Made by a program: the position numbers and the translations under genes | Shown: positions 4,494 to 31,555 of the stretch, piece after piece | Layout: each line of letters starts with the position of its first letter | How positions within the stretch are numbered: position 1 is the stretch's first letter | Origin: Pseudomonadota bacterium | GTDB lineage: Archaea; Thermoplasmatota; SW-10-69-26; JACQPN01; JAJPHT01 | Length of the DNA: 64,000 nt | Reading direction: 5' to 3' | Assembly (NCBI GenBank): GCA_021325135.1 | Contig: JAJPHT010000007.1 | Coordinates: 33,776-97,775, forward strand | Notes under the pieces: model-generated | Told to the model about the DNA's origin: nothing | The model's database searches: none | Seen by the model: only the letters and a program-made list of their open reading frames with translations

Positions 4494-4733
4494 TTGCGAA
4501 CGCTCCTCCTCGCCCTCCTGCTCGTGCCCGCGACCTTCGTCCTCGCCGCCCCCGCGTCCGCGGAGGGCTCGCTGCCCTGCCAGGTGACGTACCACCAGGT
4601 CTACCTCGACATGGACCACCCCACCAACGTGCCCGACGGCGTGCAGTGCGAGTCGTGCCACGTCACCTACCACCAGGTGTACCTGGACATGGACCACGCG
4701 ACGAACGTCTCCGACGGCGTCGAGTGCGCCTGA
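4494..4733 (+). CDS. Small secreted Cys-loop peptide with two tandem repeats
   Basis: Signal peptide followed by two copies of CxVTYHQVYLDMDHxTNVxDGVxC. Confidence 0.75.
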   Translation: MRTLLLALLLVPATFVLAAPASAEGSLPCQVTYHQVYLDMDHPTNVPDGVQCESCHVTYHQVYLDMDHATNVSDGVECA

Positions 4734-4736
4734 GCG

Positions 4737-5045
4737 TCACGCGACCCTGTCGTTCTCGCACGCGATGAGCGCGCCGCGGTAGGAGAACACCGAGGCGCCC
4801 GCGCACCCCAGGATCGTCCGCGCCGCGTCCAGGTCGGCGGGGGAGAGGTCCAGCGTCACGTTCCGCCCGTCGTGCGCCGCCTCGATGCCGCCGCGCAGCG
4901 GAGCTGAGAGCCGCTGGAACTGCTCGTCGGTGAGCGACGCGACGGCGTTGGAGCCTGGCGGCGCAGGGTGGAGACGGATCGAGCCGCCGTAGCTCGACGC
5001 GCAGCCCGCGACGAGCAGGCACGCGACGAGGAGAAGCGCCCGCAC
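4737..5045 (-). CDS. Putative lipoprotein
   Basis: Hydrophobic leader with lipobox VAGC; GTG start inferred. Confidence 0.6.
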   Translation of the reverse strand: MRALLLVACLLVAGCASSYGGSIRLHPAPPGSNAVASLTDEQFQRLSAPLRGGIEAAHDGRNVTLDLSPADLDAARTILGCAGASVFSYRGALIACENDRVA

Positions 5046-5103
5046 GGCCAGGCATGGACGCGACGGAGCGAAGGCTTTGCGCCACGAGGGCCCTTGGGTC
5101 CGC

Positions 5104-5535
5104 GTGGCGAAGCGCATCTGGACCCTCGGCTACGAGGGCCGCGACCCCAATGGGTTCGTGGCCGCGCTGCGCGAGGCGGACGTGCAGCGCGTCGTCGACG
5201 TGCGCGAGCTTCCCCTCTCGCGCAAGGTGGGCTTCAGCAAGGCCTCCCTCGCGCGCGGGCTGGAGGCCGCGGGCATCGCGTACACGCACCTGCGCGCGCT
5301 GGGGACTCCCCGGCCCATCCGCCACGCGCTGAAGTCCGGCGGCGACCCCGAGACGTTCCGCCGCGACTACCGCGCCTACGCCGAGACGCAGCCCGAGGCC
5401 TTGGCCCAACTGGAGGATCTCGCGCGGCGCGAGCGCGTCGCCATGCTCTGCGTCGAGGCCACGGCCGACGTGTGCCACCGCGGCGTCCTGGGGGAGATGC
5501 TGAAGGAGCGCGGCTGGCGCGTCACGCACCTCTGA
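5104..5535 (+). CDS. DUF488 family protein
   Basis: IWTLGYEG, VVDVRELPLSRKVGFSK, LCVE....CHR motifs. Confidence 0.9.
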   Translation: MAKRIWTLGYEGRDPNGFVAALREADVQRVVDVRELPLSRKVGFSKASLARGLEAAGIAYTHLRALGTPRPIRHALKSGGDPETFRRDYRAYAETQPEALAQLEDLARRERVAMLCVEATADVCHRGVLGEMLKERGWRVTHL

Positions 5536-5588
5536 GCCGCCTAGGCTCTCCGGAGAACGCTTGAGCCTGCGCGGCGCGATGCCGCCGC

Positions 5589-6434
5589 ATGCGCGCCCCC
5601 GCGCTCATCACCGCCCTTCTTCTCGCGCTCCCCTTGGCGGGGGCCTCCATCCTGCCCCCGTCGGACCTGCCGGTGCTCGTCCACGCGGAGGGGGACGGCC
5701 ACGGCTGGATGTCCATGCGCGTCCGCACCGACGGCAGCCCCTTCGTCGTGGAGATCGAAGGCCTCGGCGCCCAAGCCCCCGTGCTCGTGATCATGGACAT
5801 GCTCGACGGGAGCGGCGCGAGCCTGGGCCACGGCCTCACCGGCGGCTTCTCCGGCTGGCAGGGCGCCTACGTCACCGGCAGCCTCGCGGGCCAGGACGCG
5901 CGCGTGGAGCAGATGTCCGGCCAGGGCAGCCTGGGCTTCGGCCTCAACGCGCTGTTCAACGACCCCGCCGCCCCCGGGCCCCGGCTCGTGGGCACCTACG
6001 CCTTCGTCATGTGGGTGGGCGGCGAGACGCGGTCGTGGGACGGCGACGTGCGCGGCGGCCCCGGCATCGAGGTGCTTGGCGTCGACCACGGCGAGCGCAC
6101 GATGCTCGCCAGCGCGCGCAGCTTCCAGGCGACCGCCAACGCGGGCGCGACCGCCTTGGGCCTCAGCGCCCACGCGGTGGTGGACGGCACGGTGCGGTTC
6201 CACGCGGAGGACCACCCCTTCGGCCTCTACGAGCCGTGGCTTCCCGGCGCGTGGACGACCACGACCATGGACACCCCTGCCGGCACGCAGGCGTGCGCGT
6301 GCGAGCGGTTCGACGCGTCGGGGCCTGGCGCGCTGGGGCCCGGCGACTACGCGTTCCACCTCACGGGCGCCAGCGCGGGGCTGGAAGGGCCCGACGACGT
6401 GTTCCTCACCTTCGCCGACGCGCGCGTCCCGTGA
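5589..6434 (+). CDS. Secreted hypothetical protein
   Basis: Signal peptide, beta-rich body, host-like codon use. Confidence 0.65.
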   Translation: MRAPALITALLLALPLAGASILPPSDLPVLVHAEGDGHGWMSMRVRTDGSPFVVEIEGLGAQAPVLVIMDMLDGSGASLGHGLTGGFSGWQGAYVTGSLAGQDARVEQMSGQGSLGFGLNALFNDPAAPGPRLVGTYAFVMWVGGETRSWDGDVRGGPGIEVLGVDHGERTMLASARSFQATANAGATALGLSAHAVVDGTVRFHAEDHPFGLYEPWLPGAWTTTTMDTPAGTQACACERFDASGPGALGPGDYAFHLTGASAGLEGPDDVFLTFADARVP

Positions 6435-6511
6435 GGGCTTGACCCGTTCGCGGAGCCCGGCGCGTGCGCGGGCGAAACGCATGTGCGCCCACCCGCGGCT
6501 GCACGCCGCGC

Positions 6512-6694
6512 ATGAAGGCTGCCCTCCTCGCTCTCTGCGCGCTCTCGCTTCTGGTCGTCGTGGCGCCCGCCGTCGACGCCTCGCCCGGCACCATCACCCG
6601 CTGCGAGCTGAAGTACACCGACCTGGACACGATCTTCGCGCCCCAGGGCCAGGACCTCCCCTCCGTGCCCACCGGCGTCCAGTGCTACTACTGA
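6512..6694 (+). CDS. Small secreted Cys-loop peptide
   Basis: Signal peptide plus CELKY...VPTGVQC. Confidence 0.7.
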   Translation: MKAALLALCALSLLVVVAPAVDASPGTITRCELKYTDLDTIFAPQGQDLPSVPTGVQCYY

Positions 6695-6703
6695 GGCGAG
6701 ACG

Positions 6704-6895
6704 ATGCGCGCGTTCCTCCTCTCCCTTCTCCTCGTGGGCGCCTGCGTGGCGCTCGTCCCCGCCGCCAGCGCGACGTGCGTCGAGGGCGTGTGCGCTCCCA
6801 CCTGCCACTTGACGTACTCCGAGAAGATCACCATCTACAACGTGGACGGCCGCCCCACGGTCGTGCCCGTCCCCAACGGCTACCAGTGCTCGTGA
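6704..6895 (+). CDS. Small secreted Cys-loop peptide
   Basis: Signal peptide plus CHLTY...VPNGYQC. Confidence 0.7.
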   Translation: MRAFLLSLLLVGACVALVPAASATCVEGVCAPTCHLTYSEKITIYNVDGRPTVVPVPNGYQCS

Positions 6896-6899
6896 GCCC

Positions 6900-7118
6900 T
6901 CAGGGCTTCAGCCGCCCGTCGCGGTAGAGGCCCTCATCGTGCATGGCGCCGCCGCGCCAGTAGAACACGTAGGCGAGCAGGCCGCCCACGACCACGACGA
7001 CGATGGCCGCCAGCGCGACCGAGGCCAGGAGGCTGCCGTCCGGGGGCAGCGTGGACTCCTGGGGCGCGCTGGAGTTGGGGGCGAGCAGGAGCGCCAGGAG
7101 AAGCGCGGCGCCGCGCAT
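6900..7118 (-). CDS. Small membrane protein
   Basis: Two hydrophobic segments; starts 1 nt after the upstream gene ends. Confidence 0.55.
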   Translation of the reverse strand: MRGAALLLALLLAPNSSAPQESTLPPDGSLLASVALAAIVVVVVGGLLAYVFYWRGGAMHDEGLYRDGRLKP

Positions 7119-7119
7119 C

Positions 7120-7788
7120 TCAGATCCGGGGCATCCTGCCGTAGCGGTACGCGCGCCTCGGCGTCTCGGAGACGCGGCGCTCCTCTCCGCGCGGGGTGTA
7201 GAGGGCCCCGGAGACCGCGCCCGCGATGCCCGCGGCCAGCAGGCACGCGACGACGTAGATCACGCCGGCAGAGGTGCCGTAGTAGCCGAGGCTCGTCGTC
7301 CAGCCCGGACGCAGGTAGAGCCCGCTGGGCCACGCGACGTTGGCGAGGTCCACGCCCGCCGCGTTGACGCCCATGGCGAAGCCGATGGCGGTGAGGATCG
7401 CCAGCGCGAGGAGCCCGACCAGCGTGCCCACGGCGCCGCCCAGGGCGCCTTGCCCGCCGTCGCGCGTCCTCGTGCCGGCCCAGAAGCCGCCGAACGCGGC
7501 GAGGATCGGGCCCGCCACCAGGGGGAGGAGGCCCACGAGGGAGGCCGCGCCCAGGACGGGGGACTGCGTGGGGTCCGCGAGGTTCACGCCTTTGATCGCA
7601 TAGGCCGAGGAGAAGGCGAGGATGCCTGCCGCGACGCCCAAGGCGACGAAGAGCCCCAGGACGCCCAGCCCGGAGCGCACCCAGTCGAGGGCGTCGCTCG
7701 TGCCGTAGGCCGGCTGGCGGCTGGGGAGCGCGGCCCGCTCCTCTCGGTCGTAAGGCTCGTCGTAGGGGTCTCGACGGTAGACTGCCAT
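7120..7788 (-). CDS. Multi-pass membrane protein
   Basis: Four hydrophobic helices; GGAGG RBS upstream. Confidence 0.7.
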   Translation of the reverse strand: MAVYRRDPYDEPYDREERAALPSRQPAYGTSDALDWVRSGLGVLGLFVALGVAAGILAFSSAYAIKGVNLADPTQSPVLGAASLVGLLPLVAGPILAAFGGFWAGTRTRDGGQGALGGAVGTLVGLLALAILTAIGFAMGVNAAGVDLANVAWPSGLYLRPGWTTSLGYYGTSAGVIYVVACLLAAGIAGAVSGALYTPRGEERRVSETPRRAYRYGRMPRI

Positions 7789-7863
7789 GCCTGCCTCCCG
7801 CGCCTCTCCGGGAAAACGGGTTCTGGCGTTCGCGTCGATGACGCCTGCGGGATGGGGCCCGGC

Positions 7864-8271
7864 TCAGCGCGCCTTCGCGACGGGGGCGAGCTGCGTCCTC
7901 AGGTCGGCGAGCTTGCGCTCCCACTCGGCGAAGACGCCCTTCTCGGCGGCGGGCGACCAGCTGCCCGAGAGCGTGGCCGTGACCAGCGTGCCGCCCGGCA
8001 CGGGCTCCACCTGGATCTGGCTCACGGTGTTGCGCTCGTCCACCACGGTCCACCCTTCGTCCTCGTGGAAGTGCGTGATCTGCGCGCGAAGCTCGCGGCC
8101 GCGGCGCGTGCGCAGGCCCAGCCACGCGCCCTGGAGGTGGTCCTGGCCGCCCACGAGGTGCGCCTCGTCGATGCCGGGCGCGAAGAGGGGCACGTTGCTG
8201 GCGGAGGAGAGGAAGCCGAACACCTCGCCCAGGGGGGCGGGGACGAGGACGCGCGTCTCGCGGGAGGCCAT
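7864..8271 (-). CDS. SRPBCC/START-fold protein
   Basis: VPAPLGEVFGFL...NVPLFAPG pattern. Confidence 0.7.
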   Translation of the reverse strand: MASRETRVLVPAPLGEVFGFLSSASNVPLFAPGIDEAHLVGGQDHLQGAWLGLRTRRGRELRAQITHFHEDEGWTVVDERNTVSQIQVEPVPGGTLVTATLSGSWSPAAEKGVFAEWERKLADLRTQLAPVAKAR

Positions 8272-8372
8272 GCACCCGCCACGCGCCGCGGTGGTGCTTG
8301 AACCTCCTGCTGGCGCCGAAGTGCACAAACGCTTATGCGTTGCCAAGCGGCCGGCGGCTTGGAGGGCTGAGG

Positions 8373-8528
8373 ATGCGCATTCCCGTCTTCGTGGGCGCGC
8401 AGGCGGAATGCCTGACCTGCGGCCGCGAGATCACCGACCCCCTGTCCGCGGAGGAGTGGGGCCGCTACTGCTCCCCCCGCTGCTACTTCGCGCGGGGCCT
8501 GCCGCCCCTGCTGCGCCAGGGCGCGTAG
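8373..8528 (+). CDS. Small Cys-rich zinc-binding protein
   Basis: CLTCG...YCSPRC; GGAGG upstream. Confidence 0.6.
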   Translation: MRIPVFVGAQAECLTCGREITDPLSAEEWGRYCSPRCYFARGLPPLLRQGA

Positions 8529-23696: not shown

Positions 23697-24024
23697 GGGC
23701 GCGGGCCTCCTTGCGCGGCGCAGAGGTCGAGGCGATGGCTGCGCGTTCGTTCGCGTAGGCGCGCAGCGCGCCCGCGATGCGGGGCGCTTCCTCGTCCAGC
23801 ACGTCCAAGGCGTGCAGGACGCGCGCCGCGTCGTCCGGGTCCGTGGGCCAGGGTGCGAGGCCTAAGAGGATGGGCAGCGGGTGGAGGGCGTTGCCGAAGC
23901 TGACGCGCGAGCGGCGCCGCGTCGCCATGAACTCGCGGGCCTCCAGCTGGAGGCCGAAGGCTTCGAGGGCTTCGCGAGAGTCCCCGCGAAGCCACTTGTG
24001 GTTCCGCTCATCCGCCACGAGCAC
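23689..24024 (-). CDS. Hypothetical protein
   Basis: Protein-like composition; overlaps the next small gene. Confidence 0.55.
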   Translation of the reverse strand: MLVADERNHKWLRGDSREALEAFGLQLEAREFMATRRRSRVSFGNALHPLPILLGLAPWPTDPDDAARVLHALDVLDEEAPRIAGALRAYANERAAIASTSAPRKEARALG

Positions 24025-24901
24025 ACCCCCCGGGCACCAAACGCAAGCCGGGTTGTGTCGTCGTGTGGATCATCGCGCGGAGGGCGAGGCGGGAGGGCGC
24101 GGGGCGGGGCATGTGGCTTTGAGTCTCGCGGGCTTCTTGGCGTTTTAGAAGGAAGGGAGGGAACGCGTCCCCCTTCCTCCCACCCTCCGGTTTCGTGGAG
24201 GGGTGGTCTTCAAGAGGCCGAGGCCGCGCCAGGCCGGCAATGTGGGTCGGATGGGGGGTGGGTTTTTCCCCACCCACCCATGGGTGCCGCGCGTGGTCCT
24301 CGTGCGGCACGCTGGCCGTGTGGTGCTCGTGCGCGTGCTCGTCGTCCTGGGCGCGGCGCGCGTCGTCGTGGCCGTGGGGTCGGCGGCGAGGGGGCAGGAG
24401 GGCGAGGAGGAGCAGGGCGAGGCCAAGGGCAGCCGCCAGCTTCGCCAAGGAGTCCGCGCTGGGCGCGGGCGGGATCGTGAGCATGAGGCTCGCCAGCGCG
24501 AAGCTGGCGGCCTTCTGCGGGATCGTGGCGAGCGTGGGGGGCGCGGCGGGGGACGCGGCCGTCGTCGCGGGCCTCGTGCTGCGCGTCGTCCTGGGCGTGG
24601 AGATCCTCGCGACGGGGACAGGGTCCGCGTCGGCAGGGGGCGCGAGGGTCGCCCGGAGCGCGCGGGAGGCGTCCGGGCGGGGCGTGGGCGCGCGCTCGTG
24701 CGTCGTCACGGCGCCCGGGTCTTGGGAGAGGTCGGGCGCGTGCAGCGTGGGCAGGAGTGCGGCGAGGATGGCGGGCGGGGGGTCGCGGGGGTTCCAGGCG
24801 GCGGGGGCGCGCATCGGAGCGGGGCTGCTGCGGGCTCCAGATTTTGAGGAATGAGGGTACGTCCCCAACGGCTCGCGTCGAGCCTGGGACGTGGCATCGG
24901 G

Positions 24902-25223
24902 TTCCTGGGATTCGCTCCACCGCGCGCTGTATGTCCGAAGTAATGCCCTCCAGTAGGGGGCATTACATAGGGACCTCCAGCGGCGGTGCGAGACTCCAGG
25001 GAATCGAGCCGGGTAGGGAGTCAAGGATGCGGGCCTACCCGGCTCTTGAGCCTCGTGCAGATCGTGGCGGTTGGGGAGGCTGCGTCCGCCTTGGTGGTGC
25101 ATTTCCTGGCGTCGGCTGCCTTGAAATCGCTCCACCGCCCGTTGCATTTCCGAAGTAGTATTCCTAGGCGGAATACTACATACGAATGCAACGAAGGCGG
25201 TGCGAGACATCAAGGCAAGACGC
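24902..25223. repeat. Two tandem copies of a conserved structured motif
   Basis: TCGCTCCACCGC..TCCGAAGTA..TACATA..GCGGTGCGAGAC at 24912-24994 and 25127-25208, with different but base-paired stems. Confidence 0.85.
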
Positions 25224-26330
25224 AGACAAGGAGTCAAGGATGAGGCCTTGTCCGCGTCCGAGGGAGGTGCCAACGCGCTTCGCGCCGGTCGCCAGATCGT
25301 GACGCGCAGGGCCTTCAGCGCGTGCAGGGCCGGGCGTGCGGTCGTGCAGATCGAGGCGAGGAGCGCGCGGGTGAGGGCCGCGGCGCTCTGGAGCGTGACG
25401 GTGAACTCCTCACGGGCGAGCCAGATGGCGAGCATCGCTCGCAAGGTCGCTGGCGAGGCCATGAAGGCGACGTGGCGTCGTTGCGTGGGCGCGCGTGGAG
25501 CTGGGCGCCGTCACGGTGACGGAACTCGGGGTGCGCGTGGTTGGCCTCGTTGTTCCGAGTCGTTGAAAAAATTCTGAGTTGAAATTCGAGTTGCAGGAAG
25601 GGCAGGGCACGATCCCCTTGGCCTGGTGATCTTGCGGGCAGGGGCGCCTCCTCGGGCCTTCCGATTGTTCTTCAGAATACACTACTGGCCTTCGTAAACT
25701 ACGGCGTAGTGTATTCCGGGAACAACCGGGTCCCGAGGGCTCCTCCCCGCCGATCCCCGCCAAGGATTTTCCTTGCCTGCTCAAAAGAGGTCAAGATAGG
25801 CGGCTTTTGAGAGCGGGCGACCCGTCGAGGCGAGGGCGGCGCGCTCTGCACACTGGAGGCCGCGCAGGGGGCCCACCGGCAACAGGCCCAAGAAGACGGG
25901 AAGGGCGGAGCCGAGGGCGAGGAGGAGTCGGAGCGCGGGCGCCTGGTGAACGTCCATGCGCCCGAGGTAGGCCGTGGTCCAATGTCAAGGGTTTCGGTGA
26001 ACCATTCCACCCGACCATGCCCCGGAGCCATGTCCGGGAGCATGGTCAAGGAGGGCGCGTCAGGGAGGCCCGAGGCCAGCGCTTCCACGCACGGTCCGCC
26101 GGGGACACCGAAGTGGCACATTCCATAGGCATTCCCTTTGGGAAGGGGAATGCCTCTGGAGGCGCTTCGTCTGTCCCGGCGGTGCGTGGGCGATTGGCGC
26201 CTCTTTCCAAGTCAAGATGTGGGCCGGAACTTCGGCGCGTGCCAAGCGCCCACGCAAGGCCAAGCGAAGAGGAGCCACCGGGTGGGGGGTGGGAATGCCC
26301 CTTTGATATCTGCCTGGGTGTCGTGGGTGG

Positions 26331-27545
26331 CTACGTGGGGGCAACGTCCAAGAAAGTCGGGCGCTGGTCGCGGTGGTCGGCGGTGGCGAGGACGAGGGCT
26401 TGCACCGCTTCGCGCAACACGGCGTCCCTGGCGTGCTCGCCGTTGAACTTGGTGAGCCAGGGGCCGGCGTAGGCGGCGTCGGCGGCCTCTTGGGCGGTGA
26501 GATTCCCCGCGGTCGCCCGGACCCATGCCTGCTCGATGACGCTATCGGGGGTGGGGGTGTAGTTGGCGAGGTATCCCTTGTGGATTTCCAGGACGACGGC
26601 CCGGGTGGAGTTGGCGCGGAAGGCGGCCTCCAGCGCGCCTTCCGTCCAGCCCCGGTCGAGGGTTTGGTTGATGACGTAGGGGAAGAAGTTGTGCGCGAGT
26701 CCGTAGAAGAAGGAGTCGTCGGCGCCTCCGCGCTCGTATGTCACGGTCTGGGAGTCCGCGCGGACGTGCTCGATGTAGGCCAGCCCGGCGGGTCCCACCG
26801 TGATGACCTGCGAGGTCTGATTTGCCGCGGCGTCCTCGGCGGCGCGCGCCTCGGAGAGCCAGAAATCCGCCGTGGTGAGCCGGCGATCGGCGCGGCCAAG
26901 GGCGGTACCATCCGTGGCGTATGACTTCCCGTCGTCGTTTGGGTACGGCTCGGGGCCCGGCTTGGCGCTGGAGATTTGCGCGGGCCAGTCCACGTCCAGG
27001 ACCGCTCGGGCCTCTTCGGCAGCCAATTCCGCCAAAGCTAGGGCGTTGATTGCCTGCACGCTATGAGCCTTCGGTCGAAATGCCGTGATGTTCGCCTCCA
27101 TGGCGGCCGTCGCGTTGCGCACCTCGCCGGGAGCGTTCTTCCATGTCTGAATTTGAGTCTCGCGGTCGGGGGATGCGAACCCACGCGAGAGGGCGAATGC
27201 ATCTTCGTAGGCAAGTTCCGTGTCGTCGATGGCGAGTGTGATATTGTGGTCTTGGGCGTAGAACTTGGCAAACGTTGTCCCTGCGTAATCCCGAGTCCAA
27301 GCAGCAGTTTCGCCGCTAACATTCATCGCCGATGCGTTGAGACGGTCGGTCGCCGTGACCTCCCAGTCGAACTGACGCTCCAGGAACGGGGAGGTCGCGT
27401 CGACGGTGTGCAAGGGAGACAGAGGCGTCGGGGCGGAGAACGTGGGAGTTGCCGGCCCACCCAGATGCCCTGTTTCCAAGATGAGCACGATGGCCAAGAG
27501 AATCCCGAGGAGGCCGAGAGCTTCGGGAGGTACACGTCGACGCAT
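26331..27545 (-). CDS. Membrane-anchored/secreted hypothetical protein
   Basis: N-terminal hydrophobic helix; GGAGG RBS; lies directly after the 27555-29858 gene. Confidence 0.75.
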   Translation of the reverse strand: MRRRVPPEALGLLGILLAIVLILETGHLGGPATPTFSAPTPLSPLHTVDATSPFLERQFDWEVTATDRLNASAMNVSGETAAWTRDYAGTTFAKFYAQDHNITLAIDDTELAYEDAFALSRGFASPDRETQIQTWKNAPGEVRNATAAMEANITAFRPKAHSVQAINALALAELAAEEARAVLDVDWPAQISSAKPGPEPYPNDDGKSYATDGTALGRADRRLTTADFWLSEARAAEDAAANQTSQVITVGPAGLAYIEHVRADSQTVTYERGGADDSFFYGLAHNFFPYVINQTLDRGWTEGALEAAFRANSTRAVVLEIHKGYLANYTPTPDSVIEQAWVRATAGNLTAQEAADAAYAGPWLTKFNGEHARDAVLREAVQALVLATADHRDQRPTFLDVAPT

Positions 27546-27554
27546 GCTAACCTC

Positions 27555-29858
27555 CTAGCCGTGCCTGATTTCGAGGGTCTTGGCGAGGTCGATCCAGTTC
27601 CACCACTCGTCGGTCACGGCATAGAGCCCGTTGAAGTTTTGCTCGATCGAGTGCAGGGCCTTGACCCCTCCGTGGAAGGTGCTTTGGCTCGTGCATGAGC
27701 CGCCGGTTCCGGGGATGGCGGCGCATCCCCATTGGACGTTGAGGTCCATGCCCTCGTCGTGGCCGTAGATGTCCGTCTTTTGGAAGTAGACGTAATCCTG
27801 AGCCTGCGGGGACGTGCTGACGTCGTTCTGGACGACGTAGTCGGAGCATGCCGTTCCTTGGCAGGAGAAGAGTTGGGCCACGGCGGGGAGCCACTGGCCG
27901 TCCGGCACGAGCGCCAGGAAGTTGATCAGGTCCTGAATGGAGGGCCCGATTGCGGGAGCTTGCGATGCGCTCGCGCCGTCCCGGCTGAAGTCCGCGATCC
28001 CGTTGGGCGTCGTCTTCCAGAACTGGCTGCTCTGGGTGATGTCTCCCCGGATGATGCCAATCTCCGGGTTCTGGGTCCGGTAACACATGACCTGGACCCA
28101 ACTGGAGTCGAGCGGATGGCACATCGAGACGCCCGACGACCAGGCGTTGTTGCTAGACACGCCGTGGCCGGTCGTCATGGTGTACGTCTGCTGGTTCCCA
28201 GTGAGGGCGTTCTTGCCATAGAACTCGTAGTCGAAGCTCCACGCGGCGGGCTGGTCGATCGAGCGGTGTCCCGCGCAGTCGACCACGCCGCGGTCCACGC
28301 GCGAGAACTTGAAGAGGCCCCGGTCGTAGGCCTGGAAGTCGGAGACGGTCCGCGTGTTGTTGTCGCCGCCGTCCGTGTACGAAACCGGCGAGGGCGAGTT
28401 GCTACCGCAGGGAATCCAGTTGCGCGTGAAGCAGGCCTTCACCGTGCCAGGCAGCGGGTCGCCGAAGGCGCTCGTGGTGCAGGAAATGCTGCCGGAGACG
28501 CCGTCGCGCCAGTAGAACCGTCCGTTCGCGCCGAAGGCCACGTCTCTCGTGCCGCTGAAGCTGCACGTCCCGCTCTCGTTGGCGCAGAAGGCGTACCCCA
28601 TGGGACCCGTGGGCAGGGCGCTGGTCTTGGTGAAACACGCCTTCACGATCCCGTAGAGCGGGTCGCCGAAGAGGTCGTTGTTGCAGTCGATCCCCAGGTT
28701 GACGCCGTTGAGGTAGGTGAACGTCCCTTGCGCTCCGTAGGCAACGTCGCTCTTGCCCGAATAGCTGCAACGGTTGTTCTCCGAGGCGCAGTAGGAGTAC
28801 CCGGGGGGACCTGCAATGCGCGTGTAACACGCCTTGCCGACCCCGTAGAGGGGATCGCCGAAGACTGTGTTCGTGCAGTCGGTCCCGCCCGAGAGCGTGA
28901 GGCTGTTGAACGTCCCGTCGGCGCCATACTTCACGTCCGCGGGCCCCGTGAAGGTGCAGTGCTGGGGCTCGGGCACGCAGTAGGTGAAGCCCGCGGGCTC
29001 CCCGCTTCCGTCGGTGGCCTTCGTGTAACAGGCGTTGGTCGTCCCGGAGTTGGGATCGCCGAACACGTCGTTGCGGCAGCTTACGAAGTGGTCCACGCTG
29101 TGCTTGTAGAGGAAAGACGAGCCGGCGCCGTAGGCCACGTCCTTGAGGCCCGTGAACGTGCAGTCCGCGCCCTGGTCCGCGCAGTATGTGTAGCCGCTGG
29201 GCCCCGTGGGCGTCATGGGCGACGCGGTGGTGCGGTTCGTCCCGTTCCCAGCCGCGTCGTTGACCACGATGGTGTCGTTCTGCGGGGCTCGGCTCGTCGC
29301 GGCCACCGAGGAGAGCACCGCGGCCCCGAGCCCGGTTCCTGCGGCGGACGGTGCGAGCGCCGCAGGAGGGGCCAGGTCAAGGGGCGTGATGGGGAACTCG
29401 GCGACCGTGGCGCCGCTGAGCGGGTCGACAAGCTGCCAGAGCCCGGCCTGGTCGGGAATGACGTGCCAGAAGAGGTAGTAGTGGTCCGGCGCGTTCGACG
29501 CCCGCGTGTCGGTGAACTCGACGCCCGTCCTGCCCACGATTTGTCCGAGAGGGTTCACGAGTTGGAGGCTCTGGCGGGCGGGCGCCCCGTAGACGGCGAA
29601 GCTCTGCGCCTCCGAGAGAGAGTAGCCCACGAACTGAGGGCGTTCGCCGCCGAGGATCATGGTGGCGATGTGCCCCGAGTAGTGAAGCCCATCCGGCGCG
29701 TCGGGCGCGGCGTCTCGCGCGGGCGCCCCTGAGGCGCCCGTGGCGGGCGCGGGCTCCGCCGCGAGGGCCAGCGTCGGGGCCAGGAGGAGAAGGACGCTGA
29801 CGAGCGCCAGACGGGTCGTTCGCGGGCGTGTGCTGGATCGCGTAGTTGGCTCTTGCAT
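27555..29858 (-). CDS. Secreted protein with four Cys-rich FGDP repeats
   Basis: Signal peptide; four copies of GY.YCA.E...C.F.G..DVAYGA.G.F........C.N..FGDP..G..KAC. Confidence 0.85.
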   Translation of the reverse strand: MQEPTTRSSTRPRTTRLALVSVLLLLAPTLALAAEPAPATGASGAPARDAAPDAPDGLHYSGHIATMILGGERPQFVGYSLSEAQSFAVYGAPARQSLQLVNPLGQIVGRTGVEFTDTRASNAPDHYYLFWHVIPDQAGLWQLVDPLSGATVAEFPITPLDLAPPAALAPSAAGTGLGAAVLSSVAATSRAPQNDTIVVNDAAGNGTNRTTASPMTPTGPSGYTYCADQGADCTFTGLKDVAYGAGSSFLYKHSVDHFVSCRNDVFGDPNSGTTNACYTKATDGSGEPAGFTYCVPEPQHCTFTGPADVKYGADGTFNSLTLSGGTDCTNTVFGDPLYGVGKACYTRIAGPPGYSYCASENNRCSYSGKSDVAYGAQGTFTYLNGVNLGIDCNNDLFGDPLYGIVKACFTKTSALPTGPMGYAFCANESGTCSFSGTRDVAFGANGRFYWRDGVSGSISCTTSAFGDPLPGTVKACFTRNWIPCGSNSPSPVSYTDGGDNNTRTVSDFQAYDRGLFKFSRVDRGVVDCAGHRSIDQPAAWSFDYEFYGKNALTGNQQTYTMTTGHGVSSNNAWSSGVSMCHPLDSSWVQVMCYRTQNPEIGIIRGDITQSSQFWKTTPNGIADFSRDGASASQAPAIGPSIQDLINFLALVPDGQWLPAVAQLFSCQGTACSDYVVQNDVSTSPQAQDYVYFQKTDIYGHDEGMDLNVQWGCAAIPGTGGSCTSQSTFHGGVKALHSIEQNFNGLYAVTDEWWNWIDLAKTLEIRHG

Positions 29859-30189
29859 GGTGTTCGCCTCGGTGGTGAAGGCGAGTCCGCACAAACGCCC
29901 CATTGCGCGACTCCCCCAATCTCATAACAGAATGGGGGAGAGAAAGGTTCCGGAGAATTGTTGTGAAACCCCTGTGAAGTTGCGCGGCAATGGTTAGCAT
30001 GCCGCAGGCGAGTTTGGGGCGTGGCCGAGGCGAACTTGAGGCTTCCCCTCGGCGTTGTTTCCCCCTCGCTGGGGCGGCATGAATTCGCGCGGCCCGGGAG
30101 AAGGCCGCGGGGATGGCGCGGTGGCCCCTAGGTGCGGCTGGCTCCTCAGGGCCTGCGGGTGGGGCACCTCCAGGGTGTTAGGAGGTCCG

Positions 30190-30792
30190 TCAAGATGGGG
30201 CCTCTGTGAGGGTGAGGTTGCCTTGGAGGTGGTAGGGTTGATCCAGGGTGGCAGAGGCGTAGGCGGGAGGGGACGCGAGGTTGGCCTTCTCGATGAGCAG
30301 GACGAGCCCGCTCTTGGGGTCGTGGGGCGGAATCGCGCATTGGAGATGGAGCGGGCTGGGCCCCTTGGCGGAAATCCCGAGGAAGTGCCAATGCTCTGTC
30401 CCGTCAGAATCGGTGGTTCGGTTGAGGATGCCCGCCACGAGCGTTTGGCTCGTGGTGGACGTGGCGGTCCAGGAGAAGGTCAGATCGGCCCAGGTGTAGT
30501 TGCCCGGCGGGAAGAACGTGGTCGAGTAGTATTCTGTGGACGGGTAGTTCGCGCAGGGGAGGTTGGAGCCCAGGTCGGGGCAGAAGCTTGCGCTCTGGGG
30601 CACGGTGCCGTCGTGCGTGAGGTTGAGGTTGCGCTGCACAGGTGTCGCGGCGCCCGCGGCGGGGCGGTCCAGGGCCAAGCTCGCGGGCGCACGGGCGGGC
30701 TTCACGGGCGGCGTGGCGGGCGGGGTGAGGCAGCCCGCCATGAGGAGGGCGACGAGGAGGGCACAGAGGCGCAGGGTTCGGGATGGGATCAT
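30190..30792 (-). CDS. Putative lipoprotein
   Basis: LCALLVALLMAGC lipobox. Confidence 0.7.
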   Translation of the reverse strand: MIPSRTLRLCALLVALLMAGCLTPPATPPVKPARAPASLALDRPAAGAATPVQRNLNLTHDGTVPQSASFCPDLGSNLPCANYPSTEYYSTTFFPPGNYTWADLTFSWTATSTTSQTLVAGILNRTTDSDGTEHWHFLGISAKGPSPLHLQCAIPPHDPKSGLVLLIEKANLASPPAYASATLDQPYHLQGNLTLTEAPS

Positions 30793-31134
30793 GGGGTGGG
30801 TTCTCCGGGGAGTGAGAGCACGCGAAGCGAGGCCCCGAGGAAGGTGGCCGGGCGCCCCCTTGGTCGTCGCCCGGTCCCCGAGCATGAATGGACTCGGGGT
30901 GGTTCGGGGCCTCGCTTCGCTTTGGGTCATGGGGAGCCTCCGCGCCGTTCGCGGCGGCGTTGCGCGCGCTCCAGGGGCGAGGAGCCCCGCGGGCCTGGGG
31001 GGAGGCGGGCGCGTCGGCCGGGCGGCGGGATCGCGCGCTGGAGGCGTTCGTGGCGCGGAGCGTGGGGCAGGCGGAGCTGGGGGTGGCGACGAGCTGCGCA
31101 ACGACCGAACCCCCACACCACGCTTCACCAACCA

Positions 31135-31164
31135 CCGCATATGCGGTTTCTTCCGTATATGCGG
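31135..31164. promoter_or_regulatory. Tandem palindromic operator
   Basis: CCGCATATGCGG-TTTCTT-CCGTATATGCGG between divergent genes, upstream of the wHTH gene. Confidence 0.6.
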
Positions 31165-31177
31165 CGATAGCCGTCCT

Positions 31178-31555
31178 ATGAGCAAAAGCGTTTCGGGTGC
31201 CTTGCGAAGCAGCGCGCGGCGGGGCCAAACCGTGGTGGACGTGGAGGATGTTCTCAGCAAGGCCGCTTACGTCAAGGCGATCCTCGTCCATCGCGAGCAG
31301 CACCCCGAGCCCATGAGTGGCGGAAACTTCGCGGAGCGGATGGACTACAACAAGGAGGATGCCGGCAAGCGCCGCCGCGAACTGGAGGCCTTGGGCGTCC
31401 TTGTCCTGTGGAACGAAGACCTGGGCGACAACCGCATCCCCACGCTTCTTTCCCGCCTCACGCCCGAAGGTGTGCGCATTGGGGACGCGCTTCTCCAAGC
31501 CAACGAGGAGGCCGCGAAGGCGCGCAAGCGCAAGGAGCGCGAGAAGCACCGCTAA
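31178..31555 (+). CDS. Winged-helix (MarR-like) regulator
   Basis: HTH-like FAERMDYNKEDAGKRRRELEALGV, wing region, LTPEG. Confidence 0.6.
   Translation: MSKSVSGALRSSARRGQTVVDVEDVLSKAAYVKAILVHREQHPEPMSGGNFAERMDYNKEDAGKRRRELEALGVLVLWNEDLGDNRIPTLLSRLTPEGVRIGDALLQANEEAAKARKRKEREKHR

Follow-up and report, generated by a model that had tools for sequence, protein, structure and literature searches.

The intergenic region of the filamentous phages f1 and M13, like single-strand origins (ssos) of the ssoA type, is a compact non-coding stack of hairpins in which a nick-site hairpin is accompanied by long imperfect hairpins that are active only in single-stranded DNA (ssDNA). Rolling-circle initiators of the Rep_1 family recognise and nick CTTGATA within the double-strand origin (dso), cutting it as CTTG^ATA (PMC10378824). 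The dso of pC194 is TCTTTCTTATCTTG^ATAATA (printed as its complement in the source), many rolling-circle replication (RCR) origins show the nick site in a hairpin loop, some dsos of the pC194 family have no hairpin, and the placement of the sso relative to the dso is given in the same source (PMC5037232). Among archaeal replicons, the haloarchaeal sphaerolipovirus SNJ1, euryarchaeal plasmids and a thaumarchaeal integrated element use an IS91-like HUH initiator, represented by RepA of SNJ1 (PMC12642351, PMC6563490), and the integrative archaeal virus SNJ2 (Betapleolipovirus) starts RCR, once excised, at a bipartite hairpin origin next to rep, the hairpin being required and ssDNA intermediates having been detected (PMC13107129). 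Replication has been worked out for a minority of archaeal integrated elements and viruses, and the literature searched yielded no origin description for mobile elements of Thermoplasmatota. Here we describe a 1.5-kb hairpin-rich region of a 14-kb integrase-bearing element, which lies in a window of 64,000 nucleotides (the whole stretch of DNA analysed) on contig C45 of a genome bin of 3.77 Mb and 51 contigs. Genes for Cdc6/Orc1, CDC48 and Nre are present in the window, so the bin is an archaeon. We hold with about even confidence that the region is a same-orientation array of Rep-less rolling-circle origin-type cis elements that are served in trans.

The region is an array of at least four units, all on the minus strand, with two small minus-strand open reading frames (ORFs) and a promoter-like box between them. 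Each strong structure is a pair, in which a long imperfect arm adjoins a short hairpin. The loop of this hairpin carries a conserved word that was not noted at first pass and that reads R-GTCAAG-R-AT if taken from the plus strand, or YATC(C)TTGAC from the minus strand. The arms have a GC-rich base and an AU-rich apex, with GUAG/CUAC apex words in four of six arms, and the loops with a candidate nick word are CCGCCTATCTTGACCT, CCCGCATCCTTGACTC, CCTCATCCTTGACT and CACATCTTGACTTGG. The parts of the array are listed below in window positions.

24900-25005, minus strand: long arm of unit U1 (type 2); its base is rich in GC (CCACCGC/GCGGTG) and its apex forms an AU-rich hairpin (24940-24966).
25006-25045, minus strand: nick-type hairpin of U1, with a perfect 12-bp stem and the minus-strand loop CCCGCATCCTTGACTC.
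25117-25217, minus strand: long arm of unit U2 (type 2), with an apex hairpin at 25155-25179.
25219-25258, minus strand: nick-type hairpin of U2, with a 13-14-bp stem and the minus-strand loop CCTCATCCTTGACT.
25466-25560, minus strand: homologue of a rep leader, about 70-77% identical to the copies on contig C39 of the same bin and in G002, a second species of the genus (alignment A1); the homology ends where the rep ATG sits.
25562-25590, unstranded: AT-rich tract, the sole strongly AT-rich stretch of the region.
25601-25780, minus strand: type-1 folded arm (the "rod"), whose helices are given below.
25780-25811, minus strand: type-1 nick-type hairpin, with an 8-bp A/T-rich stem and the minus-strand loop CCGCCTATCTTGACCT, identical to that of the C39 and G002 copies.
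26118-26265, minus strand: module D, a hairpin at 26127-26155 plus a long stem at 26184-26255 that encloses CACATCTTGACTTGG (minus strand).

The folding of each stretch was compared with that of 200 dinucleotide shuffles using RNA or ssDNA parameters. All four units fold far better than their shuffles with either set, with z-scores from -4 to -11. The stretch 24900-25048 reaches -6.9 as RNA on the plus strand and -8.1 as ssDNA on the minus strand, and 25115-25262 reaches -10.1 and -10.9, respectively. The rod, folded within 25585-25815 as RNA and 25585-25825 as ssDNA, scores -4.6 (plus) and -5.3 (minus) as RNA and -6.1 as minus-strand ssDNA, and module D (26118-26265) scores -4.2 as plus-strand RNA and -4.35 as minus-strand ssDNA. 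A first-pass annotation of this DNA had named a series of stems, among them the perfect 12-bp stem 25006-25017/25034-25045, a rod at about 25593-25780 and the hairpin 26127-26155, and all of them are present where it placed them. It had also noted that the rod reuses a GTAGT..ATTC word, which indeed occurs both at the apex of U2 (25155-25179) and at the apex of the rod (25675-25716). Two smaller hairpins exist as named with weaker statistics. The one at 24859-24892 has a z-score of only -2.8 (RNA, plus strand), a value equalled by 2 of 200 shuffles, and could be chance or a minor element. The other, at 26013-26047, belongs to the fold of 25960-26062 (z -3.35 as plus-strand RNA, and a non-significant -1.6 as minus-strand ssDNA), and it is not kept in the homologue on contig C26 of the same bin. 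With RNA parameters, neither strand shows a consistent excess of G-U pairs, so that the suggested G-U asymmetry gives no direction to the units.

Comparison between copies shows that pairing is preserved where sequence is not. U1 and U2 are direct repeats that agree in about 71-80% of positions and show compensatory changes; the hairpin stems of the two are entirely different in sequence, and both are perfect. In a blastn search of the genome, 25466-25817 matches C39:35103-35455 with 84.5% identity, 25868-26014, which covers the N-terminal part of a 58-codon ORF and its upstream box, matches C26:10263-10412 with 77%, and 25966-26219 matches C26:9360-9611 with 70%; U1 and U2 have three further relatives on C26. 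The loop-bearing hairpins surround the same loop word with the stems GAGCCGGGTAGG, GACGCAGACAAGG, GCCAACTTTGGGG, GGACCCGAGTT and CTCAAAAG. In the type-2 alignment (U1, U2 and the three C26 copies; n = 5), the stems differ fully between copies while pairing is kept, and 17 of the 32 consensus pairs have changed on both sides. The type-2 covariance model R1 gives U1 128.9 bits, with U1 itself among its training copies. The C26 homologue of module D (L002:5310-5635) has 79% column identity, and the hairpin 26127-26155 covaries between the two, GGCATTCCC/GGGAATGCC standing against TACGCTCCC/GGGAGCGTA; CATCTTGACTTGGRAAGAG is invariant. Thus the comparison with related elements proposed at first pass brought out homologous modules whose stems covary. 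A filtered blastp between the C45, C39 and C26 loci found no shared proteins beyond one weak pair, and unfiltered tblastx between the elements gave compositional noise only; essentially no proteins are common, and the three loci share only non-coding modules. By these alignments, the region is a mosaic whose modules each have relatives of their own, and not one unit.

A mosaic of this kind could also be a recombination graveyard of origin fragments, a rep-less leader and a truncated gene start, functionless today in this element. Each module indeed has a different relative (C39 and two places on C26) with sharp homology breaks, the rep leader runs into an unrelated ORF without a stop, the 58-codon ORF takes its C-terminus and stop codon from a hairpin, and the type-2 units are absent from all relatives searched. 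However, neutral decay would break the stems of U1 and U2, which at about 71-80% identity both retain perfect 12-14-bp stems and intact arms, and the type-1 core is 97-100% identical to Rep-linked copies despite diverged flanks. Because the U1 and U2 stems are perfect in spite of divergence and the type-1 core is nearly identical to those copies, we think that the units are kept by selection and are not decaying, and a graveyard appears quite unlikely.

The best-kept unit overall is the type-1 unit 25601-25811, and its relatives tie it to a gene. On C39 and on contig C109 of G002, the type-1 module stands immediately upstream of a gene for a 313-aa protein, P0001, the C39 and G002 proteins being 91% identical. 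The order on the gene strand is hairpin, arm, AT-rich tract, a leader of about 100-170 nt and ATG. The P0001 family is small: a search of 5.8 billion proteins gave nine homologues. Three metagenome contigs (L016, L017 and L018) and contigs C81 and C301 of G003, a third species, code for members that share 43-55% identity with P0001. The module lies upstream of rep in seven loci (C39, G002:C109, G003:C81, G003:C301, L016, L017 and L018), with Reps 43-91% identical to P0001. A second Rep subfamily, at G004:C108 and G003:C2, is similarly equipped with a 12-13-bp hairpin with the loop CCCCGCCATCTTGACCCC, a covarying arm and an AT-rich tract, which share the strand of the gene and lie about 1 kb upstream of it; at the 3' base of the arm stands GGTGGCGGAACG, a sequence similar to GGTGGAGCG and GGGTGGAACG of the type-2 units. 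In total, the linkage between module and rep extends over nine other loci and two Rep subfamilies. At G004:C108, the origin-like module is separated from rep by a gene of about 200 codons (L074:690-1305), whose product has a zinc-finger-like motif, CxxC...CxxC. When 401 genomes of the phylum were searched with a profile, the P0001 family turned up in this genus alone, besides more distant relatives, and IMG/VR scans for Rep relatives and for the arm base gave no true match.

Among the eight type-1 copies, the hairpins of L016, L017, L018, G003:C81 and G003:C301 show the loop CC(C)YATCTTGAC(C) on A/T-rich stems that differ between loci. The arm consists of the basal helix P1 (GGCAGGG/CCCTGCC), the helix P2 (GGCGGG/CCGC), an internal loop rich in purines, a long arm that varies and a side hairpin that covaries. 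Both basal helices, the internal loop and the side hairpin are kept, and the long apex is completely different in sequence among loci and always paired. In alignment A5 (n = 8), 94.2% of cells pair as opposed to 86.4% in shuffles, a value reached by 0 of 500 shuffles, and nine pairs have changed on both sides, with slid controls at 38-52%; kinship raises such figures, although the copies represent five independent lineages. Among C45, C39 and G002, identity reaches 97-100% in the core (25614-25761), whereas the flanks are at about 40-77% and the rep-containing DNA beside the module is about 88% identical between C39 and G002, which argues that the arm is more constrained than the adjacent protein gene. 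The AT-rich tract occupies the same place in all eight type-1 modules and in the second subfamily, and may be a promoter (TATA) of the downstream gene, an unwinding element or both. As ssDNA (DNA parameters), the Rep-coding strand folds better in seven of the eight copies, by 5-9 kcal/mol; this corresponds to four of five independent lineages with one tie, and the effect is modest. Such a preference fits the folding of a nicked or displaced strand.

Several side observations concern these loci. In the leader, a palindrome CCGTCACGGTGACGG at 25508-25522 recurs at the same position, identical or as a variant, in C39 (L001), G002 (L019) and L016, and could be an operator at which Rep controls its own expression or a small DNA-binding protein acts. 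The two species share, at 83-88%, a block of about 10 kb that contains rep and four large ORFan genes (G000:C39:35103-45264 and G002:C109, L013:1580-11163); the end of this block coincides exactly with the outer foot of the nick-type hairpin. C39 also encodes a C45-type integrase (C39:18234-19784), 15 kb from the block.

The rep linkage bears on the idea that the structures are 3' untranslated regions, terminators or upstream regulatory structures of the flanking minus-strand genes, that is to say promoters and hairpins that stabilise transcripts, with no role in replication. Flanking and intervening genes do lie on the minus strand with the units between them, a T6 run follows the type-1 arm on that strand, the C39 hairpin starts about 30 nt past the stop codon of the upstream gene, and a promoter-like box lies inside the region. 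However, the oligo-T is not kept among the eight type-1 copies, the upstream gene is different or missing at every locus while the downstream rep is constant, and a 200-nt conserved branched structure with an invariant loop motif exceeds what an archaeal terminator needs. We therefore consider this explanation improbable.

P0001 bears the hallmarks of an HUH endonuclease. Its alignment contains an invariant Cys cluster, HxHxD (H147, H149 and D151) and R-Y-S-A-R-x-x-Y, as well as an EVYTLPP-type motif, with H147, H149, Y225 and Y231 invariant in 10 of 10 sequences. The AlphaFold2 model (predicted local distance difference test score, 88.4; predicted template modelling score, 0.86) was compared with known structures. 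The best Foldseek rows are nearly all HUH proteins, namely TraI, TrwC, pCU1 TraI, adeno-associated virus (AAV) Rep, RAYT and IS608 TnpA, with E values of 0.014-0.3 and most probabilities at least 0.8. VIA-align, which is independent of Foldseek, returned TrwC (Z 8.2; root mean square deviation 4.7 over 148 residues), NS1 of minute virus of mice (7.7), TraI (7.4), AAV5 Rep (7.1), a Helitron transposase (6.7), MobM (6.5), a vientovirus Rep (6.5) and ORF119 of the rod-shaped virus SIRV (6.3); singly these Z values are middling, and as a whole they make a consistent list. The nearest ESM Atlas clusters are Rep_1 by features (0.97, 19 of 30) and IS91 Y2_Tnp/Zn_Tnp_IS91 by structure (template modelling score 0.67-0.73). 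Pfam Rep_1 (PF01446) gives at best 13.5 bits (E 0.05) against a gathering threshold of 33.2, three of ten members matching weakly, and Zn_Tnp_IS91 gives a sub-threshold hit for P0001. On its motifs, the fold searches with the predicted model and the Atlas clusters, P0001 is thus filed as an HUH enzyme of the Rep_1/IS91 kind; lying below the Pfam threshold, it is not a member of the Pfam Rep_1 family. A tblastn search of P0001 against phage and plasmid collections found no match.

The likeness to Rep_1 (pC194/pUB110-type) and IS91 origins extends from the initiator, an HUH/Y enzyme as predicted here, to the origin just upstream of rep and to the core word TATCTTGA, which is shared with the pC194 dso TTATCTTG^ATAA and the CTTGATA site (PMC5037232, PMC10378824). 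The type-1 loop TATCTTGAC shares TATCTTGA with the pC194 dso, and a nick sequence of the CTTG^ATA type is thus present, by sequence resemblance only, in a single-stranded loop whose A/T stem melts readily. Unlike those origins, the word here ends in AC and not in ATA and stands in the loop of an A/T-stemmed hairpin, where some dsos of the pC194 family have none, adjoined by a conserved branched arm of about 190 nt; the units of the window are multiple and without rep, and the Rep family falls below the Pfam threshold. With f1/M13 and ssoA-type ssos, the units share stacked, orientation-dependent, non-coding hairpins beside a dso, yet the arm here lies just downstream of the putative nick and not upstream. 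Conserved RSB and CS-6 (TAGCGT) elements mark ssoA-type ssos; no CS-6-type word TAGCGT was seen by eye in the arms, where no formal motif scan was made and bacterial sso motifs need not fit archaea; the literature searched gave no description of primer synthesis on an sso in archaea. The element resembles SNJ2 as an integrative archaeal element with an SNJ2-type integrase and a hairpin non-coding origin, whereas RepSNJ2 is a Rep_trans-like DUF7845 protein and not an HUH enzyme, and its origin is about 60 nt long and downstream of rep. SNJ1 RepA resembles P0001 at the clan level, as an archaeal HUH rolling-circle initiator related to IS91 and found on viruses, plasmids and integrated elements; in contrast, P0001 has no tblastn similarity to any record of the phage collection, in which the presence of SNJ1 was not verified.

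These data also bear on the RNA side of the question. The first-pass annotation had offered one large non-coding RNA (ncRNA) as its first reading, and in this form it is not supported, since the 1.5 kb resolves into at least four separately conserved units with small ORFs and a promoter-like box, and Rfam 15 gives no match at gathering thresholds in the whole window and none at E ≤5 in 24300-26800. A revised version would make the units structured ncRNA genes, either on the plus strand with GUCAAGRU loops or on the minus strand with YAUCUUGAC loops, that regulate or assist the element in copy control, packaging or as a protein guide, the rep linkage reflecting an RNA cofactor or regulator of Rep. 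The strong z-scores with RNA parameters are in line with this, as are covariation with conserved loops and internal loops, which is the usual signature of functional RNA, the AT-rich tract with TATA-like words 13-25 nt from the basal helix of the arm in all type-1 copies, and the pairing of the termini in P1, as in many stable RNAs. However, besides the Rfam result and the lack of a regular G-U excess on either strand, no consistent oligo-T terminator is found past the units in either direction, the arm lies upstream of rep and not antisense to it, which leaves no classic countertranscript, and the loop motif matches a DNA nick-site consensus of the enzyme family encoded beside it. We regard ncRNA genes as possible and rather unlikely.

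The second reading of the first-pass annotation, a single-strand origin or leading region implying an ssDNA phase, has indirect but considerable support. The module stands upstream of an HUH rep gene in seven loci with the second subfamily alike, and the loop TATCTTGAC is close to the Rep_1 nick site; the element itself has no Rep, so the ssDNA phase stays an inference. In the mechanism we propose, the hairpin loop YATC(C)TTGAC would be the nick site, where the cut would fall after CTTG as it does with Rep_1 and IS91 enzymes, the long arm would serve for initiator recognition and/or as a single-strand origin for priming of the complementary strand, and the AT-rich tract would act as rep promoter and/or unwinding element. 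Since the element has origin units and no rep, it most likely uses an enzyme that another element of that cell supplies. The window hairpins would be nicked in trans by the C39 Rep or by Reps similar to it, which we find the most economical function; the integrase-bearing, envelope-protein-rich element would then replicate or be processed via ssDNA after excision, with the tandem nick sites as successive points of initiation and termination. The module mosaic may have been born of Rep-mediated or hairpin-mediated recombination.

A number of findings weigh against this origin reading. No Rep homologue was found in the 14-kb element, whereas a dso of this type has a cognate initiator gene on its own replicon, usually beside it, and within the bin the P0001 search found one only on C39; for the element ORFs scanned, Pfam and PHROG gave no Rep hit of any kind, DUF7845 (Rep-Arvir) included, and no unit of C45 or C26 adjoins a Rep gene. 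Action in trans by the C39 Rep is itself wholly an inference. C39 and C45 come from a single metagenome bin, for which contamination is estimated at 5.6%, and their residence in the same cell is unproven. The resemblance of the loop covers six of the seven bases of CTTGATA, and eight bases (TATCTTGA) of the pC194 dso. The type-2 units and module D show no strand asymmetry in folding and occur in this genome only (C45 and C26) among the 21 searched, the type-2 covariance model finding only its five training copies in these genomes. Five more distant Rep relatives (family f30) have no such hairpin within 1.5 kb. The homology among C45, C39 and G002 stops at the outer foot of the hairpin, and not in the loop, where a nick-mediated junction is expected. 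The word GTCAAG occurs in six copies in the region, all on the plus strand (CTTGAC on the minus strand), yet GTCAAG clusters are common in coding DNA genome-wide, GTC-AAG being a common Val-Lys codon pair; we therefore discarded this count as evidence and used the hairpin context instead. This context speaks for the origin reading: of 123 ATYCTTGAC-type motifs in the genome, every one with a stem of at least 10 bp falls in units on C45, C26 and C39. Stems of 8-9 bp flank about seven motifs, which include the window type-1 copy (8 bp), and most of the rest lie outside units. Finally, the data at hand fit a function at the DNA level and at the RNA level alike.

Contig C26 carries a longer array (L002, G000:C26:4000-16000, especially 4683-8500), with three type-2 units, one module D and at least one inverted CTTGAC hairpin, small ORFs interspersed, a tyrosine integrase gene about 2 kb away (L002:9883-11052; Phage_integrase, E 1.3e-5) and no Rep nearby. 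As the C45 and C26 arrays each lie about 2 kb from a tyrosine integrase gene with small same-strand ORFs interspersed, and the hairpins differ in sequence while sharing a shape as attC sites do, we also considered that the units are integron-like attC analogues used by the integrase of the element for small gene cassettes. However, related integrases of one family (41-48% identity) are encoded at eight other loci, and these have no such hairpins unless they also contain rep; the integrase on C26 is another protein and a shorter one, and the units are tied to rep in nine loci and not to an integrase. The conserved word, moreover, sits in the loop of a separate hairpin and not in paired R''/R' core sites (RYYYAAC/GTTRRRY) at the base of a stem. 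With such core sites wanting and with relatives of the integrase that come without arrays, the attC reading is disfavoured, and we regard it as very improbable.

The remaining features of the region and its flanks are as follows.

24008-24814, minus strand: gene for a proline-rich membrane protein, the left flank of the hairpin region.
24859-24892, unstranded: the small GC-rich hairpin mentioned above, between the start of that gene and U1.
25210-25462, minus strand: doubtful 84-codon ORF, at the rep position of related loci, with no stop of its own and the frame open to 24008.
25781-25957, minus strand: 58-codon ORF for a small hydrophobic protein, taken from the ORF list, with GC contents at the three codon positions of about 0.77/0.52/0.77.
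25976-26005, minus strand: promoter-like box ATGGTTCACCGAAACCCTTGACATTGGACC, which precedes the start codon of the 58-codon ORF by about 19 nt.
26013-26047, unstranded: the hairpin GACCATGC...GCATGGTC mentioned above, beside a GTCAAG word.
26331-27545, minus strand: P0003, gene for a secreted or membrane protein, the right flank.
27555-29903, minus strand: P0004, gene for a 782-aa secreted protein with five repeats of a Cys-containing module.

Codon periodicity is missing from about 24790 to 26320, save at 25240-25420, the only stretch with a third-position GC of 0.85-0.88. The initial view that the region holds no convincing ORF except perhaps about 25210-25462 therefore needs amendment: periodicity is seen within that ORF, which has no Rep-family similarity and no Pfam hit, and the 58-codon ORF 25781-25957 with its conserved promoter-like box has to be added. 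The last 10 codons and the stop codon of the latter come from the type-1 hairpin, and it is probably a truncated or fused gene start. Its box also precedes two different C26 genes, with ATGATATT replacing TTGACATT. As a 30-nt word ATGGTTSACCGWAACCCWTGAYATTGGACC, it is found before three unrelated genes (window 25976-26005, minus strand, and L002:5575-5610 and L002:6270-6300 on C26), some 19-25 nt ahead of their ATG codons, and it looks like a portable promoter of B recognition element and TATA box for leaderless mRNAs, shared among mobile elements. A minus-strand frame, 24008-25462, is open for 1455 nt through U1 and U2, in frame with the start codon at 24814. At least one of six frames is open in 63 of 2000 dinucleotide shuffles of 24815-25462, and this open frame may be due to chance. 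The same 484-codon frame was tried as a disrupted rep and rejected, as it has no similarity to P0001.

Farther right, an 8-bp hairpin at 30181-30205 with the minus-strand loop CATCTTGAC lies exactly at the stop codon of the gene 30190-31260 and could be a fifth nick-type site of the element, or chance. The repeat module of P0004 reads C..FTG..DV.YGA..F......C.N..FGDP..G..KACYT, and P0016 and P0017, also on the minus strand and farther right, look secreted or membrane-bound as do P0003 and P0004. With these four proteins, the element looks enveloped-virus-like or built for surface display. Pfam and PHROG assigned no family to any element ORF scanned, P0004 included, and no transfer RNA or transfer-messenger RNA genes were found.

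The region thus offers a testable origin architecture, in which a nick-type hairpin is followed by a branched arm of about 190 nt and an AT-rich tract. Its likely enzyme is a divergent Rep_1/IS91-like HUH family that is missed by Pfam, by PHROGs and by BLAST against phages and plasmids, and the locus presents the case of an integrase-bearing, envelope-protein-rich element with several such origins and no initiator. A tentative extension, rather unlikely in our judgement, is that the element is a Rep-less archaeal satellite whose origin array is matched to the Reps of other residents (two subfamilies), so that an induced helper would replicate or mobilise it in trans. As the nick hairpins stand in tandem and in one orientation, a round that starts at one and stops at the next would also release the small genes between them as ssDNA minicircles, a rolling-circle counterpart of gene cassettes or of the multipartite genomes of nanoviruses. 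The array might instead be a decoy that titrates the Rep of a competitor. If replication in trans is true, it would mean helper-satellite dependence among archaeal elements, of which we found none described for archaeal rolling-circle replicons, and if tandem nicks do release minicircles, this would be a new route of gene-cassette mobility. The module itself could serve as a replicon for genetic tools in this uncultured lineage.

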